Source: a virus (taxonomy: Duplodnaviria > Caudoviricetes). From it: a stretch of DNA of 64,000 bases. Of this stretch, positions 47,174 to 54,226 are shown piece after piece. A model generated the notes under the pieces. That model had not been told where the DNA came from. It searched no databases and saw nothing but the letters and a program-made list of their open reading frames with translations. The translations under genes and the position numbers were made by a program. Where the stretch lies: positions 2,893-66,892 of the IMG/VR virus record IMGVR_UViG_2974529408_000001. The stretch is one strand, 5' to 3'. How positions within the stretch are numbered: the stretch's first letter is position 1; every line of letters begins with the position of its first letter.

Positions 47174-47488
47174 ATGCCTCCTAACTGGCTTATTTGGCTC
47201 CTGGTTGCACTGGGCGTCTTTCTGCTGGTCATGATGCTCGCTAGCTTCATCGTCAATGGCATAGACAGAAGGATTGACCCCCGGCTGGACGAGAAGATGA
47301 TCAAGGCTAAGAATGATGCCTTGATGGATAGTGAGGAGAAGGCATACGCCGAGAGGCTTATGGAGGGGTGGCTCAGCAAGCACTGGGAGCCACTTGATGA
47401 ATGGGTTCCGACACCAGATCAGAAATGGGAAGACAATGCCGATGAGCTACGAAGAGGCCAAAGAGGCCCTTCACGAGATGTACGATGA
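47174..47488 (+). CDS. membrane protein
   Basis: N-terminal TM. Confidence 0.7.
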   Translation: MPPNWLIWLLVALGVFLLVMMLASFIVNGIDRRIDPRLDEKMIKAKNDALMDSEEKAYAERLMEGWLSKHWEPLDEWVPTPDQKWEDNADELRRGQRGPSRDVR

Positions 47489-47546
47489 CGAGTGGATCGA
47501 GCAGAATGGCGAGGAAGAGATGATCGAGGAGCTGATGAAGCTGTGA
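47436..47546 (+). CDS. small acidic peptide
   Basis: MPMSYEEAKEAL...EELMKL; GTGA overlap with next ORF; overlaps the previous gene by about 50 nt. Confidence 0.4.
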   Translation: MPMSYEEAKEALHEMYDDEWIEQNGEEEMIEELMKL

Positions 47547-47635
47547 GCTGGATCGGTTTCATTCAGACAATCGCGATCATGTTCTGGTTCTACATGCTCG
47601 CCGCCGGACTAGTCAGGGAGATCAAGAAGTCGTGA
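47543..47635 (+). CDS. 30-aa membrane peptide (absent from ORF track)
   Basis: GAGGAG RBS, GTGA overlaps at both ends, single TM. Confidence 0.5.
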   Translation: MSWIGFIQTIAIMFWFYMLAAGLVREIKKS

Positions 47636-48105
47636 AGTGGGTTGATGGTGCCCACCGTAGGTTTGAGGAGGTTCATCAGTGTGATGACTTTTGCAAGCCT
47701 ATTGGTGGCTCCATTGGCAGGCCGCCTACTCCATGGTGCAAGAGATTCCCAAGGTTGATATCTTATCAAGAAGACAACACCTGTTGGTGGTGGACCTCTT
47801 CGATGAATAAGACAGACGCCCAAAGGAATAGGCTGAACTTCTCTCTGAGGTCTCAGTTCTTCATAGATTTGGGGTATCCTGCGGCAGTTGATGCCTGTCG
47901 ATGGATATACGAAAATGAAATAGATGACATTCCTGAAGGAATGCAGATAGACCATCTCTGCGAAAATTGGAGATGCGTCAACCCTTACCACTTGGAACCC
48001 GTAACTGTTCTTGAAAACAACCAGCGATACCGAAGCACTCGGTCATCGTGGACCTTGCGTGATGAGCACGGCATCATTCGAGGTCGCAAGGAGGTGATGT
48101 CATGA
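47632..48105 (+). CDS. free-standing HNH homing endonuclease
   Basis: IDHLCENWRCVNPYHLEPVT..EN; visibly AT-richer than its flanks. Confidence 0.85.
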   Translation: MKWVDGAHRRFEEVHQCDDFCKPIGGSIGRPPTPWCKRFPRLISYQEDNTCWWWTSSMNKTDAQRNRLNFSLRSQFFIDLGYPAAVDACRWIYENEIDDIPEGMQIDHLCENWRCVNPYHLEPVTVLENNQRYRSTRSSWTLRDEHGIIRGRKEVMS

Positions 48106-51100
48106 GGTGGGTCAGTTTGCATACGCATTCGACCTTCTCCTAGGTGGCCTACGGAGACGGCTACGGGCCGGTGAAAGACCACGTTGCCCGAGTTGAGGAG
48201 CTTGGCATGACTGCCATCTGCCTCACCGAGCACGGCCACAACTCTTCTCACGTGCAGCTTGAGAAGGCATGCAAGGGCACCAGCATCAAGCCCATGTATG
48301 GATGCGAGCTGTACGTTGTCCACGACAACTGGGAAGAGCAGCGACGCAAGTACCACCAGATCGCGATTGCCATCAACGAGAAGGGTTACCAGAATCTCAA
48401 CCGTATCGTCTCAATCGCGAACTCGCCGGAATATCAGTACGACCGTTTCCCCACCATCCCCAAGCACATCCTGTTCGAGTACTCAGAGGGTCTGGTTGTT
48501 ACCAGTGGCTGTGCCGACTCGCTGCTGAGCTGTACCCTCCTTGGCGGAAAGAACATGGGCCCCAAGAGACTGGAATACAATGAAGAGCAATACCGAGAGA
48601 CTGTCGCACTTGCGGCAGAGTACCAAGAGGTATTCGGACCGCGTTACTTTCTGGAAGTGCAACGTTTCCCGAGACTGGACCGTACAAGGGTGCTCAATCC
48701 GGCCTTCGAGCGGATTGGTGCTGAACTTGGGATTGAGCTCGTTGCCACGGCGGACGTCCATTACCCTCACCCTGGGGACAACAAGATGCATCGCATACTC
48801 CACGCTGCGAATCGTGGTGGTGGGAAGACGATTGCCCAAGCTGACGCTGAGTGGGAATACGACATTCTCCTCACTTATCCTGAGTCAGATTCGGAAATCT
48901 ACCACGACCTTATTGCCACCGGACTCTCCCCGAAGGCAGCGAAGAGATCCATTCTGAACACTGCGGCCATCGCGAAGCGATGCACCGTAGAGCTTCCCAA
49001 GAACGAACCGATCAAGTGGCCCTACCCTGGCAGCGGTCTCCGTGGCGAGGACATTGTGGCCGACGTGGAGAAGGAGGGCAACAATGATCCGCAGACTTAT
49101 TCGAGCATTGAGGAATACACTTGGGCGCGTCTCCGCAAGGGTTGGGCGTTCCGCATCCAAAGCAATGTCCATATGCGGAAGAACAAAGCGCAGTATACTG
49201 AGCGTGTCAAGTACGAGATGGAGCGCATCATCCCTCGTGGATTCTGTGACTACTTCGGCATGCTCAGTTACCTGGTCACCTGGGCCAAGGACAACAAGAT
49301 TCCTGTTGGACCTGCTCGCGGAAGTGCTGCTGCTAGCCTGGTTTGTTACCTGCTCCGCATCACCGAGGTCGACCCACTACAGTTCCCGACGATGATGTTC
49401 GAGAGGTTCATCGACCCCAAGCGATTGGACCTCCCAGACGTCGACTTGGACTTCGCCGACGACCGACGCGATGAGGTCCGCCAGGAGGCCATCCGAGTCT
49501 TCGGGTCTGACCGTGTGGGCAACATCGGTAACTTCACCAGGTACAAGGGCAAGAACTCGATCACTGACGTGGCGAAGGTCTACGGCATCCCCAAGTTCGA
49601 TACTCAGGTCGTCAAGGACCTGATCATTGAAAGGTCAGGCGGTGACTCTCGACAGAACGACACGCTCATGGACACCTTCGAGATGTTCCCTAAGGCACGA
49701 GCAGTACTGGACAAGCATCCGGAATTGGAGCTTGCCTCGAAGCTTGAGGGGAACTACCGGGGCGCAGGGGTTCATGCAGCAGGACTCGTCATATCCAACG
49801 CTTCCATCCCGGACACCTGTGCCCTCCACACGCAAGAGTCAGGCGGTCGTGAGATTACCGCTGTCCCCTACGACAAGAAGGACGCAGAATATCTGGGCAT
49901 GCTGAAGGCTGACTTCCTTGGCCTGAAGACGATGGGCGAGATCGGGCTCATGCTGAACATCATCGGCATGGACCTGGAAGACCTTTACCGCATCCCCCTG
50001 GATGACGAGGAGGTGATGGACGCCTTCCAGAGGAACGATGTTCAGGGCATCTTCCAGTTCGAGGGTCGAGCCACCCGAGTCACCTGTGACCGAGTCAAGC
50101 CGGACAACTTCATGGAACTGGCGGACATCAACGCGCTGTCCCGACCTGGACCATTGTTCTCGGGCATGACTGATCATTATATCAAGGTCAAGTGGGGCGA
50201 GATGGAGATCGAGAAGCTCCATCCCATCGTCGATGAGTACACGTCGTTCACCAAAGGTCAGATCGTCTATCAGGAGCAGGTTCTTGGAATCATTAAAGAC
50301 CTGGGTGGATTCCCAGTTCAACGAGTTGGCGACATTCGGAAGATCATCAGCCAGAAGCTTGGCGAGGCGAGCTTCAACGAGATGTACGAGGAGTTTGAGT
50401 CTGGGGCCAAGCGACTTCATAATGTGGAACCTGCCCTCGCTAAGCGAATCTGGAGCTTCATGGTCACTTCGGCCACCTACAGTTTCAATATCGCTCACTG
50501 TGTCTCCTACAGCATGCTCGCTTTCTGGCAGATGTGGCTCAAGATCCATGATCCTGTCGCTTTCTACTACGCCAAGCTAGAGAAGACGCCGAACGACAAG
50601 AACAACCAGGACAAAATCCGCAAGTACATGAAAGACGCTGTGCGACACGGGGTTTCAGTTGCCGCACCGCATCTCAACAAGAGCACGAAGTCTTGGGCGT
50701 ACGACCATTACGTCCCGGCTTCAAAGACGAAGCCAATCACATGGAAGGAGGGTGATCCGCTGGTCGGCGCTGTCCATGCCGGATTTACCCAGATCAAGGG
50801 TATCGGAGACAGCTATGCTGACAATATTCTGGAGTTGCGTGATCGTCTCGGTGGTTTTGACAGCTGGGAGGATCTACTTGGCGCGAAGGGGATCGGACCG
50901 GGACGACTAGAGAAGATCATGGCCTTCGTAGAGAAGGATGATCCCTTTGACGTCCGACTGGCTGAGCACATTCTCACCGAGTACCGACGCCGCATCAACC
51001 TGGGCATCGACGGCTGGGACGAAGTGCTTGAGCCGGACATGACCTCTGACGAGGTGCCCAAGGACTTCTTCGGAATGTTCACCTGGATGGGTATGGTGAA

Positions 51101-51452
51101 GAAGAAGGAGTTCAAGGACCTGATGGAGGATGAGCGGGCACGATCTGGTCAGTCGACCGAAGAGATCATGGCCCGACTGAAGGACCCGCACCTCACCAAG
51201 AGCTGCACCCTGCACTGCTATGACGATGGTGACGAGGAGATTTACGCTCGCATCAGCCGATGGGACTACGAAGCATTGGAGACGCTACTCGAAGAGATCG
51301 AACCCAACAAAGACGTAATCGTGATCACTGGCAAGCGCAAGCGGATGTTTGGTATCTCCGTAGGAGTCAAGAACATCCAGGTGATCGACCCGACCGATGA
51401 CATCCCTGGCATTCTGGAGAATGCCCGAAAGAAAGCAGCTGGTATACAATGA
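48102..51452 (+). CDS. dnaE: DNA polymerase III alpha (DnaE-like), interrupted by in-frame TAG at 48141-48143
   Basis: AAGGAGGTGA SD + MRWVSLHTHSTFS*VAYGDG; TEHG, GCELY, DVHY, RGSAA, FERF, PDVDLDF, HAAG, KADFLG. Confidence 0.92.
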
Positions 51453-52380: not shown

Positions 52381-52777
52381 CTGGCCCAAGGGGATCATCC
52401 CTCATGAAGGTCGGTGCGCTGGAACTGAGGACTGCAACCGATGTGTCCAGGAGAAGCTCAGGCGAATGGATGAGCCCAACACCTTCACGGGGCTGACCCC
52501 GGAAGAGGCCCAAGAGGAGTTGAACAAGAGAACGAACACCAGGCCCCGTCTGGGGGAGATCGGTTCATCGTCCTTCCGGACCCTGGACAAGATCGTTCTG
52601 GAGTCTGGCGTATCGAACGTGATCGACAAGCTCACTGCTCCGCCAGAGACCGTGCGAGAGCACCTGGACCGGATCGGCGTTGGCTTCAAGGTCCCGATGG
52701 TCAATGGCCGTCTCGTAATCGAAATTGATGTGGCGGAACTGGAAGCCGCCGAGAACCCCAAGGAGGGTCAAGAATGA
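52370..52777 (+). CDS. hypothetical protein
   Basis: GAGGAGG RBS; H..C....C..C. Confidence 0.65.
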   Translation: MESDWPKGIIPHEGRCAGTEDCNRCVQEKLRRMDEPNTFTGLTPEEAQEELNKRTNTRPRLGEIGSSSFRTLDKIVLESGVSNVIDKLTAPPETVREHLDRIGVGFKVPMVNGRLVIEIDVAELEAAENPKEGQE

Positions 52778-53829
52778 ACGCAGGACCGGGCAACAACCCT
52801 GATATGGGTGCAACGTGGCACGCCGACATGGAGGCGGCGCGCAAAGGCAAAGAGGTCCAACGCTGGGCGGACGACTTCATGTTTGAAGCGGAGGCAATTG
52901 ATGAAAATACAGGTCCCGAGGTCTACCTCCTGGCCGGTAATCCTGATCCACTGGGGAGCATTGCGGCTGCCGCGAAGGCATACGTGGGTGAGTTTGTGGG
53001 TTCGCTGTCCGAAATCACTGATGAGGAACGCCGACACTACCTCACCGAGATCCAGAAGACTGCCCTGGCGATGCCCCTGGAATCGGTACAGTTCCATTTT
53101 CGTATCAAGGGTGTCACTCGGGGATTCACCCATCAGATGGTACGTCAACGTACGGCTGCATACAGCCAGGAGTCCACACGATTTGCCGTCAAGTCCGGAG
53201 TTCCAGTGGGCCGACCGCCCTCACTCGACGGGACTCTGAGCCGGAAGGAATGGCGCGAGAACGAGGCGAAGACCACCAGCATGGGTTCTGCGAGCGAAGA
53301 CGTGTGGCTAGAGTACGAGGAGCGGTACGCCACCGACGCCCAGAAGGACCGCTTCGACTGGGACGACCTGATGGATCACGTGAAGGTGTTCTACAACAAG
53401 GTCGTGGACCGTGGTTCGATGCCTGCTGAGGATGCACGCGGCGCACTGCCGACGAACCTCCTGACTCAGCTGAACTACATCACGAACCTCCGCAACCTTC
53501 AGGTTGAGGGTGGCAAGCGACTCTGCACCCAGGCCCAGCATGAATGGGTTTTGGTGTGGGGCAAAATGCTCGAAGCTATTGCCAATTATGGAGACGAAAC
53601 AAATAATTGGCAATACCGAGAATTGGCCAGAATCTTCAAGCCAGTATGTTTTCTTGAAGGCAAATGTCCATTCAATGCCAGCTTTGACCGTAAGTGCAAC
53701 ATTCGCGGCAAAGTCGAACAATATGCCAGCCACGGAGTTCCAAGCTCAGATTGGCCAATGGGCCGTGCTGACCTTGGAATCCCGCCCATCCTTCCTCAAG
53801 AATGGACCAGGGCCGATGCCGCACGGTAA
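52774..53829 (+). CDS. thyX: ThyX-like flavin-dependent thymidylate synthase
   Basis: RGFTHQMVRQRTAAYSQESTRF, EDARGALP, NLR, RLCTQAQHE. Confidence 0.85.
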   Translation: MNAGPGNNPDMGATWHADMEAARKGKEVQRWADDFMFEAEAIDENTGPEVYLLAGNPDPLGSIAAAAKAYVGEFVGSLSEITDEERRHYLTEIQKTALAMPLESVQFHFRIKGVTRGFTHQMVRQRTAAYSQESTRFAVKSGVPVGRPPSLDGTLSRKEWRENEAKTTSMGSASEDVWLEYEERYATDAQKDRFDWDDLMDHVKVFYNKVVDRGSMPAEDARGALPTNLLTQLNYITNLRNLQVEGGKRLCTQAQHEWVLVWGKMLEAIANYGDETNNWQYRELARIFKPVCFLEGKCPFNASFDRKCNIRGKVEQYASHGVPSSDWPMGRADLGIPPILPQEWTRADAAR

Positions 53830-54226
53830 GGGATTGTGCAAATGTCACAGTAATCTCAAAGGCAGGACCATCAAAGCAAAGCATGGTCCTGGAATTTGCA
53901 AATGTCCAAAACATCAAACAAGAGAAACCCTATATAGGGTTGATTTTCAAGAGATGTTTGGCGACGGTCCATTTCCTTGCGGGGAAAAGAAACTGGGCTG
54001 CGGCGAACCAGTCATGTTCAACGAGTGCATCATTGATCATGTTGATGGCAATCACAAAAACAATGACCCTGATAATTGGCAGCCTATGCACAAGCGATGT
54101 CATGATAGGAAAAGCGCCATCGAAGATGGACGGGGCAGTCGAGTCATAGGAATGAATGCCCACCCAAGCAACAGTCCAGAGTCAAGGGCAGAAAGAGCAA
54201 GGATCCAACATGCCAAAAATCAATAG
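53816..54226 (+). CDS. free-standing HNH endonuclease
   Basis: IDHVDGNHKNNDPDNWQPMHKRCH; AT-rich. Confidence 0.85.
   Translation: MPHGKGLCKCHSNLKGRTIKAKHGPGICKCPKHQTRETLYRVDFQEMFGDGPFPCGEKKLGCGEPVMFNECIIDHVDGNHKNNDPDNWQPMHKRCHDRKSAIEDGRGSRVIGMNAHPSNSPESRAERARIQHAKNQ

Follow-up and report, generated by a model that had tools for sequence, protein, structure and literature searches.

A candidate homing-endonuclease cassette and a possible short ribosomal hop in the dnaE gene of Gordonia phages

How does a phage make its only DNA polymerase when the gene runs into a stop codon thirteen codons after its start? The question is raised by dnaE in a stretch of 64,000 nucleotides (the window; IMG/VR record IMGVR_UViG_2974529408_000001, positions 2,893 to 66,892) that is most of the 66,892-base genome of a Gordonia phage. 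Among named phages, those nearest to it are Erutan (96.6% identity over 47400-48700), Patos and NorManre, themselves members or neighbours of the genus Lambovirus. Nine bases, TAG GTG GCC, break its dnaE gene at the first metal-binding motif of the PHP domain, and a gene for an HNH endonuclease stands immediately in front. An earlier note, made from the letters of the window, had taken nuclease gene and insert for one unit read by non-standard decoding, and had offered three routes by which the polymerase might be rescued: a ribosomal hop over the nine bases, readthrough of the stop, or a restart just behind it. I propose that a mobile homing-endonuclease cassette occupies the stretch from 47630 to about 48154, and that ribosomes make the canonical protein by hopping the short way from UCC to GCC across its mini-gap. 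Comparison of sequences makes this, I think, the probable answer.

A stop codon in the first motif of DnaE

The gene begins at ATG 48102, and the last codon of its leader, TCC (48138-48140), is the proposed take-off codon. The insert then supplies a stop (TAG, 48141-48143), a possible restart codon (GTG, 48144-48146) and the proposed landing codon (GCC, 48147-48149), after which the frame goes on as TAC GGA GAC GGC, or YGDG. Only when the nine bases are skipped is the spacing H-x-H-[ST]-x-x-S-x-x-D-G regained. The open reading frame (ORF) chosen by the gene caller starts at GTG 48144 and runs for 1102 amino acids (aa); its product is without the first strand of the PHP domain, that is, without both histidines, and its match to the PHP profile begins no earlier than position 11 of 164. 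Lambo, a relative that has no HNH gene, reads TTC TCG TAT GGT at this site and is exactly nine bases shorter there. Its protein (Lambo-type letters rwvslhthstfsygdg) can be aligned gap-free with residues 6-21 in the solved DnaE chains 4jom_A and 2hpi_A (RFVHLHVHSDYSMIDG and KFAHLHQHTQFSLLDG). I take the two histidines and the aspartate of this motif to be ligands of metal in active PHP domains. What the earlier note had said of this anatomy is confirmed on reading the sequence: the order of leader, stop, GTG, GCC and in-frame YGDG, the return of the motif on deletion of nine bases, the loss of both histidines from the called ORF, and the CCTA direct repeat that bounds the insert. Owing to that repeat, the insert can also be placed as CCTAGGTGG at 48139-48147.

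What follows the gap encodes the remaining PHP domain, polymerase core, fingers and a helix-hairpin-helix region (Pfam PHP, DNA_pol3_alpha, DNA_pol3_finger, HHH_3 and HHH_6); the G+C content of dnaE is 55.4% (window, 58.4%). It is the sole polymerase gene in the 66,892 bases, as judged by one match to PF07733 and none to PF00476 or PF00136. The 1102-codon frame is unbroken in five isolates, among them Xenia2, where it has been kept at about 80% identity in DNA and 87% identity in protein over the first 319 residues. Since there is no other polymerase and the frame is kept in Xenia2, the gene is in use.

Then there is the matter of whether the nine bases are real. The same nine are found in Erutan, Patos, NorManre and Xenia2, four phages isolated independently (New Mexico, New York, Florida), and all four have the HNH gene. 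In contigs from three sequencing runs of isolates (word depth 511-782), positions 48141-48149 show neither an indel nor a deviating letter. These contigs depart from the window at 5-10 positions elsewhere, and thus come from relatives and not necessarily from the window's own run. Besides DNA of isolates, the runs that could be found were from wastewater; one run labelled RNA, X5 (probably DNA), has no cover over the gap and so carries no information on expression. The idea that sequencing or assembly produced the insert is refuted by the independent isolates and the deep contigs, and I give it practically no chance.

The gap also goes with the nuclease. Among 39 phage records that match 48102-48180, four are full-length and have the HNH gene, and 32 (a count that takes in GenBank and RefSeq duplicates) are nine bases shorter, with no HNH gene under the match. 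The remaining three, Wojtek, OtterstedtS21 and DoobyDoo, are five bases shorter: they have a 4-base insert beside another endonuclease or its remnant. The expectation that insert and HNH gene would occur together in related phages thus holds in four of four carriers.

The HNH gene itself is fitted tightly into its surroundings. Its GTG start overlaps the stop of a small ORF upstream, and its TGA stop overlaps the ATG of dnaE (ATGA). The protein matches HNH_3 at 34.8 bits (cut-off 24.8; 1.3e-8) and the PHROG endonuclease families down to 7.5e-20, and it scores 25.7 bits with zf-His_Me_endon, slightly below the cut-off of 27. The gene has a G+C content of 48.5%, against 58.4% for the window, and so both the overlap and the AT-richness that had been reported for it are borne out. 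Among phage records the protein has four relatives at 88.5-98.7% identity and one at 49%, in Mycobacterium phage Aikoy, which likewise stands before dnaE. In Lambo, where the gene is missing, the alignment with the window ends at about 47628 and restarts at the start of dnaE. An HNH domain, sporadic occurrence at one fixed site and foreign composition are traits of homing endonucleases, and all three are found here.

The cassette stands in place of about 46 bases of the Lambo arrangement, and it does not end with the nuclease gene. Six of the 15 dnaE codons compared differ between window and Lambo within the cassette, and all six differences are synonymous. Beyond the tract that contains these silent changes and the gap (48102-48155), identity with Lambo returns. 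As in a co-conversion tract, then, donor and recipient alleles are unlike on either side of where the nuclease presumably cuts. The Shine-Dalgarno sequence of dnaE belongs to the cassette as well: it is the same in all five phages that bear the HNH gene (Xenia2 differs by one base upstream of it, at 48087), and comparison of the sequences finds none of comparable strength before dnaE in Lambo.

Xenia2, otherwise divergent, is nearly identical to the window over a short island that covers the 3' end of the HNH gene, the Shine-Dalgarno sequence, the leader, the insert and the resume codon. Outside the island, identity is 77.6% and 87.1% upstream, in the rest of the HNH gene, and 79.0% downstream in dnaE; the drop at 48152/48153 is sharp and lies directly past the resume codon. 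The island is what repair of a double-strand break near the gap from a cassette donor would leave; selection on the sequence could also explain it. Silent differences in the leader are found elsewhere too, in 10 of 14 codons between Aikoy and its relative Onyinye and in 7 of 10 between Mycobacterium phage Leopard and Onyinye. Between Wojtek and the pair DoobyDoo and OtterstedtS21, two of 18 leader codons differ, both silently; these two changes arose after the 4-base gap had been gained, and as such they make a weak test.

Gaps in other actinophage dnaE genes

Twelve further gap variants, of 2 to 7 bases, lie within the two PHP metal-binding motifs of actinophage dnaE genes. An HNH-type gene stands directly upstream of ten of them and 400 nt upstream of one, and the last has none. 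One gap architecture recurs with unrelated or distant endonucleases, and this is the main new evidence that the present analysis brings.

Several of the variants are in cultured isolates, namely Aikoy, Leopard, Wojtek, DoobyDoo and OtterstedtS21. Aikoy has the leader MEYVSLHHHSTFSY, followed by TGA and a 5-base offset (TAT TGA AC GGC), with an HNH_3 gene in front; both the nuclease and the five bases are missing from Onyinye. In Leopard a 5-base gap falls three codons earlier (CAC TCT TAG CC ACT), and the product of its gene 81 has a weak HNH_2 match below the cut-off and no BLASTP likeness to the HNH protein of the window. In Gordonia phage Wojtek the leader MGKKMHWVSLHTHSTFSY is followed by TGA and a 4-base offset (TAT TGA C GGC). 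An unannotated ORF before the Wojtek dnaE gene (L053, 450-908) encodes an endonuclease with a NUMOD3 motif and cysteine/histidine motifs. DoobyDoo and OtterstedtS21 (L054 and L135, about 790-905) retain Wojtek's leader and 4-base gap beside only the last 110 bases or so of the nuclease gene: the nuclease was lost and the gap was kept.

Two further sets of loci were surveyed. Among 44 IMG/VR loci, 40 have the canonical spacing H-x-H-S-x-x-S-x-x-D-G in frame, three encode divergent proteins without the motif (L050-L052) and one, L033, is interrupted by a 7-base offset after SLHH that starts with the rare codon TTA. The ORF before this dnaE gene has an HNH motif (HNH_3, 17.3 bits, under the cut-off of 24.8). 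Among 80 metagenome loci, 74 are canonical in spacing, two are cut by the end of the contig and four are interrupted: L061 (5 bases, like Leopard), L076 (7 bases), L088 (2 bases) and L098, whose contig is that of L033. No locus of either survey has an in-frame sense insert of three residues at the place in question. The earlier note had reasoned that a simple nonsense mutation would leave the three extra codons as sense codons in relatives without the HNH gene; none of that kind was found.

A second hot spot for gaps lies after the PHP motif TEHG, at about codon 42, where gaps of 5-7 bases start with TGA or TAG. When identical sequences are removed, 79 distinct loci remain that could be judged. 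Of those with an HNH gene upstream, 7 of 9 have a gap, as against 2 flagged loci among 70 without one (Fisher p = 4e-7); one of these two, L050, is merely a divergent protein. A locus was scored as HNH-positive if phmmer gave E <= 1e-3 to any of seven nuclease queries. Seven metagenomic lineages that seemed to carry HNH without a gap do not serve as a counter-example as a group, five of them having the second-site gap; L018 and L083 remain. Co-occurrence and the sister cassettes together lend support to the core of the earlier note, according to which the HNH gene and the stop-containing insert are one unit calling for non-standard decoding. The features are collected in Table 1.

Table 1. Elements of the dnaE cassette in the window, and second-site gaps in other loci
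Feature	Position	Strand	Basis or remark
Free-standing HNH endonuclease gene, 157 aa	47632..48105	+	Pfam HNH_3, PHROG endonuclease families
Near-identity island with divergent Xenia2	48040..48152	+	1 difference in 113 bases
dnaE Shine-Dalgarno AAGGAGGTGA	48088..48097	+	Read directly; inside 3' end of HNH gene
dnaE leader, 13 codons (MRWVSLHTHSTFS)	48102..48140	+	Translation; PHP first strand with H-x-H pair
Hairpin TCTCC-TAGG / TGG / CCTA-C-GGAGA	48136..48157	+	Drawn in earlier reading; not a supported element
Nine-base insert TAG GTG GCC	48141..48149	+	Absent from insert-less relatives
dnaE remainder from resume codon TAC (YGDGYG...) to stop	48150..51452	+	Pfam matches
Second-site gap, 7 bases	L012 2567-2651 (also L125)		HNH homologue directly upstream
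Second-site gap, 6 bases, GGT TGA GGT AAC	L021 2561-2660 (also L022-L024, L074, L075)		HNH homologue directly upstream
Second-site gap, 6 bases, GGT TGA GGC AAC	L025 2561-2660		HNH homologue directly upstream
Second-site gap, 5 bases	L059 768-852; L090 1567-1651		HNH homologue directly upstream

Some observations on these loci stand by themselves. The nine-mer GGTGGCCTA of the window (48144-48152) recurs at the HNH/dnaE junction of Aikoy as the final codons and stop of the HNH gene (L005, 1629-1637), where it reads GGG GTG GCC TAA; this may be chance or a trace of the gap's origin. The codons AGT TTG CA, for S-L-H, recur in the cassettes of the window, Aikoy, Leopard, L061 and L012, and the TTG in them looked unusual, insert-less relatives using CTT and CTC. 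Aikoy gene 83 has its annotated start upstream in the dnaE frame, overlapping the HNH gene, and its N-terminus is without the histidine motif. In mycobacteriophages of the Onyinye type, dnaE is naturally in two parts, one for a PHP protein (about 317 aa) and one for the polymerase protein, and a small gene lies between them (L005, 1595-2596; L006, 761-1714 and 2021 onward; L008).

Others concern the metagenomic and IMG/VR variants. On L088, a contig of 2.2 kb, the gap reads TCT CA ACC (about 860-900), and the gene upstream is dCTP-deaminase-like, with no nuclease. In L076 (1-651) an HNH_3-like ORF (54-446) lies out of frame over the front of a methyltransferase-like ORF (...DPFAGSGTT...); the nuclease may interrupt that gene, with the dnaE gap about 400 bases further on. 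The DnaE protein of L033 (2660-5863), as its ORF translates, has a large insertion in the polymerase part with intein-like ends and an HNH-like motif. Finally, the window has a second HNH-type ORF (53504-54226; ...DHVDGNHKNND...HKRCH...), which overlaps the 3' end of a thyX-like gene (52774-53829). No mini-gap was seen in the ORFs around it on brief inspection.

How the gap might be read

The proposed history begins in a phage without the cassette. The nuclease would cut the conserved sequence of the PHP motif at the 5' end of dnaE, and repair would copy the cassette into the cut gene. From then on the silent changes and the gap would shield the carrier's own dnaE from the nuclease. Ribosomes would initiate at ATG 48102 and, on arriving at UCC (Ser13), would have UAG in the A site. 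Some of them would escape termination, keep the peptidyl-tRNA-Ser, slide by nine bases and re-pair to GCC at two of three positions. They would resume at UAC, and the junction of the product, ...STFS/YGDG..., would be the one that insert-less relatives encode directly.

The sister gaps are what gives this proposal its force. In 11 of 13 variants a stop follows directly on the last codon of the leader, the exceptions being UUA in L033 and CAA in L088. In all 13, the codon before the resume point matches the last leader codon at two or more of its three positions, if U and C in the third position are scored as a match. At the first site the pairs are UCC to GCC in the window, UAU to AAC in Aikoy, UAU to GAC in the Wojtek type, UCU to GCC and UCU to GCU in Leopard and L061, UAU to UGC in L076, CAC to CGC in L033 and UCU to UCA in L088. 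At the second site, where the pairs were read by eye from the sequences, GGU is followed by GGU, GGC, GGA, GGC and AGC. The chance of such a match is estimated at about 0.25 per case. The pattern is the signature that would be left by a peptidyl-tRNA that lets go of a codon with a stop next to it and pairs again a little further along, and the predicted product in each variant is the canonical protein with no extra residue.

Gaps of 2, 4, 5 and 7 bases shift the frame, and this matters for the choice among routes. In Leopard, from the stop upstream as far as the gap, the dnaE frame contains no ATG, GTG or TTG, as the sequence reads, and no in-frame start was found at or near the gap in Leopard, Aikoy or Wojtek. 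Since the frame changes and no start is near, neither readthrough nor restart can give the first PHP strand in such phages; only a shift or a hop yields a complete PHP domain there. The +9 hop in the window is favoured by analogy with these frame-changing cassettes. Of the three rescue routes offered earlier, therefore, the hop comes out ahead, and the other two fail at the 4-, 5- and 7-base sister gaps. A wider claim may be attached to this: that the variants form a natural family of stop-hops over 2-9 bases, planted by unrelated homing endonucleases in two PHP motifs, for which a two-position codon match suffices. I consider that claim a shade likelier to be right than wrong.

Several points weigh against the hop. 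The landing codon GCC mismatches UCC at its first position, and the gap in the window, unlike those that change the frame, is in frame and has GTG after its TAG, from which a restart could give protein without any hop. Hop and restart at GTG 48144 may also operate side by side. The likeness of take-off and landing codons partly follows from an insert that splits a codon, and the 13 variants are not all independent. The 2-base gap of L088 may be an assembly error, or an alternative +2 shift site (UCU to UCA). The metagenomic lineages L018 and L083 carry HNH and no gap, so a gap is not required for carrying the nuclease, and nuclease families beyond the seven queries would escape the class scored as HNH-positive. 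The silent differences in the leaders may be older than the gaps, and the Xenia2 island may reflect recent gene conversion and not selection on recoding signals.

RNA structure, moreover, gives the hop no help. The hairpin of Table 1 had been described in the earlier note, and its letters are present as described; its stability is no better than chance. In a fold of 51 nt its z-score is -1.24, with 22 of 200 shuffles equally good; in 63 nt it is -1.15; and the hairpin is missing from the minimum-energy fold of 111 nt. It is not predicted in Xenia2, in which GGAGA is GGCGA. Folds were made of 51, 63, 111 and 121 nt of the window, of 51 nt of Xenia2, Aikoy, Leopard and Wojtek, and of 42 nt of Lambo. 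No RNA structure beats chance (z from -0.46 to -1.24), and the 51-nt folds of Xenia2, Aikoy, Leopard and Wojtek have no hairpin in common. With all z-scores between -1.49 and +0.77 and no shared fold, structure was rejected as a recoding signal. A take-off stem-loop and a 5' stem-loop can be drawn (z from -1.15 to -1.24), with the take-off stem broken in Xenia2. Within 48109-48135 of the 63-nt fold, the silent changes CTT to TTG (codon 6) and TCC to TCG (codon 10) each complete one pair of this possible 5' stem-loop, an observation that rests on one comparison, window against Lambo.

The most serious competitor of the hop is termination at UAG followed by re-initiation at the adjacent GUG (48144). 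The polymerase would then work without the first PHP strand and its histidines, and PHP proofreading would be lost or dispensable. Stop and GTG adjoin in frame, for which the estimated chance is about 3 in 64, nothing breaks the ORF that begins at 48144, and the database annotation of Erutan and Patos uses this start; spontaneous sliding of 70S ribosomes with re-initiation has been described, in the portion of that report available (PMC11194080). But no purine-rich ribosome-binding site lies ahead of this GTG, and every cassette has kept leader, start codon and strong Shine-Dalgarno sequence with silent changes only. Under restart the first strand would be lost, and it is this strand that lines up with the N-terminal motif conserved among solved DnaE chains. 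Nor could restart be the general route, given the sister gaps that change frame and the distance of the next starts, 35 codons downstream in Wojtek (the annotated one) and 53 in L033 (the first listed). For the window I regard it as unlikely, though deserving to be kept in mind. That UAG is instead read through by a near-cognate or suppressor tRNA, leaving x-V-A between the H-x-H-S-x-x-S strand and D-G, would suit a gap whose length is divisible by three and which contains just one stop. It leaves the 2-, 4-, 5- and 7-base gaps without rescue, no surveyed homologue has extra residues here, and the motif is free of gaps against the solved structures. A suppressor tRNA or a reassigned TAG was looked for and rejected: the window and the whole genome have no tRNA gene, and TAG closes 19 of 68 crude ORFs in the window, as an ordinary stop does. 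Readthrough therefore seems to me very improbable.

There is also the view that nothing rescues the gene: that a selfish element has damaged dnaE, that the 13-residue piece is junk or acts in trans, and that the polymerase is crippled or replaced by that of the host. Homing elements can be mildly harmful, as the discussion of MobA allows in its available part (10.1101/2022.08.31.505936), and the natural split of dnaE in Onyinye-type phages into a PHP protein and a polymerase protein is a precedent of sorts for separate pieces. Yet this is the phage's only polymerase gene, and its long frame has stayed intact in five isolates, divergent Xenia2 included. Random damage would not be expected to put stops at the take-off codon in 11 of 13 variants and matched landing codons in 13 of 13, and the remainders in Leopard, Aikoy and Wojtek are without a start of their own near the gap. 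I consider damage quite improbable as well, and return to the hop as the favoured reading.

If that reading is true, short hops are a recurrent and evolvable answer to the invasion of essential genes by homing endonucleases, and the rules for landing sites can be read from a natural series of gaps of 2-9 bases. Many phage dnaE genes in the databases would then carry wrong or truncated starts: those of Erutan and Patos are annotated at GTG, those of Xenia2, Wojtek and Leopard further downstream, and that of Aikoy extends upstream in the frame it shares with the HNH gene. These phages would give the study of natural short-range bypassing its first tractable system, and would allow a test of whether gaps give homing endonucleases immunity to themselves. 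The insert-bearing Gordonia phages are cultured and freely available, culture collections hold them and their non-pathogenic host, near-identical insert-less phages serve as built-in controls, and in the window the product of a hop differs from that of readthrough just by three missing residues.

Known systems with similar gaps

Natural examples of bypassing are very few: gene 60 of T4 and its relatives, yeast mitochondria and a candidate in phage Hau3. In the literature that could be searched, with subscription journals and supplements out of reach, there is no description of gaps in phage dnaE. One case comes from cultured actinophages and was reported in 2015 (PMC4351075): an HNH gene inserted before an essential gene leaves no usable start. 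According to the accessible text, mass spectrometry revealed that translation takes place ahead of the annotated start, and bypass was named as one possibility. That case concerns another gene, and the accessible text defines neither a mini-gap nor a pair of take-off and landing codons and leaves the mechanism open.

In the terminase gene of Streptomyces phage Hau3, UUA triggers the bypass of 10-nt inserts; in E. coli, mass spectrometry detected the peptide that spans the junction (Antonov et al. 2023, PMC10732093, in the text accessible). As in dnaE, the coding gap is short, lies in an actinophage gene that is essential, and goes with an A-site codon that is slow to decode, and L033, with UUA in place of a stop at its gap, comes close to it. 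Hau3 differs in that its trigger is a rare sense codon and its proposed role is regulatory, tied to the bldA tRNA of the host. The accessible text of that paper does not mention a homing endonuclease (0 occurrences of HNH or homing).

The elementary step, on the other hand, has been engineered. In the synthetic stop-hops made in E. coli (Weiss et al. 1987, via the available part of Atkins et al. 2016, PMC5009743), a peptidyl-tRNA leaves a codon that faces a stop and re-pairs a few bases on, as proposed here. The gaps of L021 and L025, GGT TGA GGT and GGT TGA GGC, have exactly the form of those constructs. The constructs were engineered, hopped at a low level and used matched codons, whereas the hop in the window would be of +9 with a mismatch at the first position. 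As far as the available part of the 2016 review goes (PMC5009743), no natural in-frame stop-hop was known at that date.

The fullest parallel is T4 gene 60, whose bypass sits within an element of the HNH homing endonuclease MobA (Manning and Atkins, bioRxiv 10.1101/2022.08.31.505936; this and the comparison that follows are drawn from what is accessible of the published accounts). There are differences. The T4 gap is about 50 bases, has an internal Shine-Dalgarno-like site and lies in a topoisomerase gene; here the gap is 9 bases (2-7 in the sisters) and lies in dnaE, though AGGTGG is found within the nine-base gap region of the window. Elements of the T4 type use matched or wobble-matched codons, and UCC and GCC in the window match at only two of three positions; matched codons are found in the sister gaps of L021, L025 and L090 (GGU to GGU or GGC). 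The hosts here are actinobacteria, no take-off stem-loop is supported, and the interrupted gene is not divided into two ORFs that have gained tails. The likenesses are of plan. In both, an HNH homing gene immediately precedes a replication gene that is essential and has a short recoded 5' piece; a non-coding gap falls in a conserved metal-binding motif, where a take-off codon is followed by UAG; relatives without the nuclease are without the gap; the gap outlives the nuclease in some phages, here DoobyDoo and OtterstedtS21; and the same kind of gap is served by different types of nuclease. Sequence homology is not claimed, and the dnaE cassette is not a member of that family. By analogy, it is in its design that it would work like MobA and gene 60.

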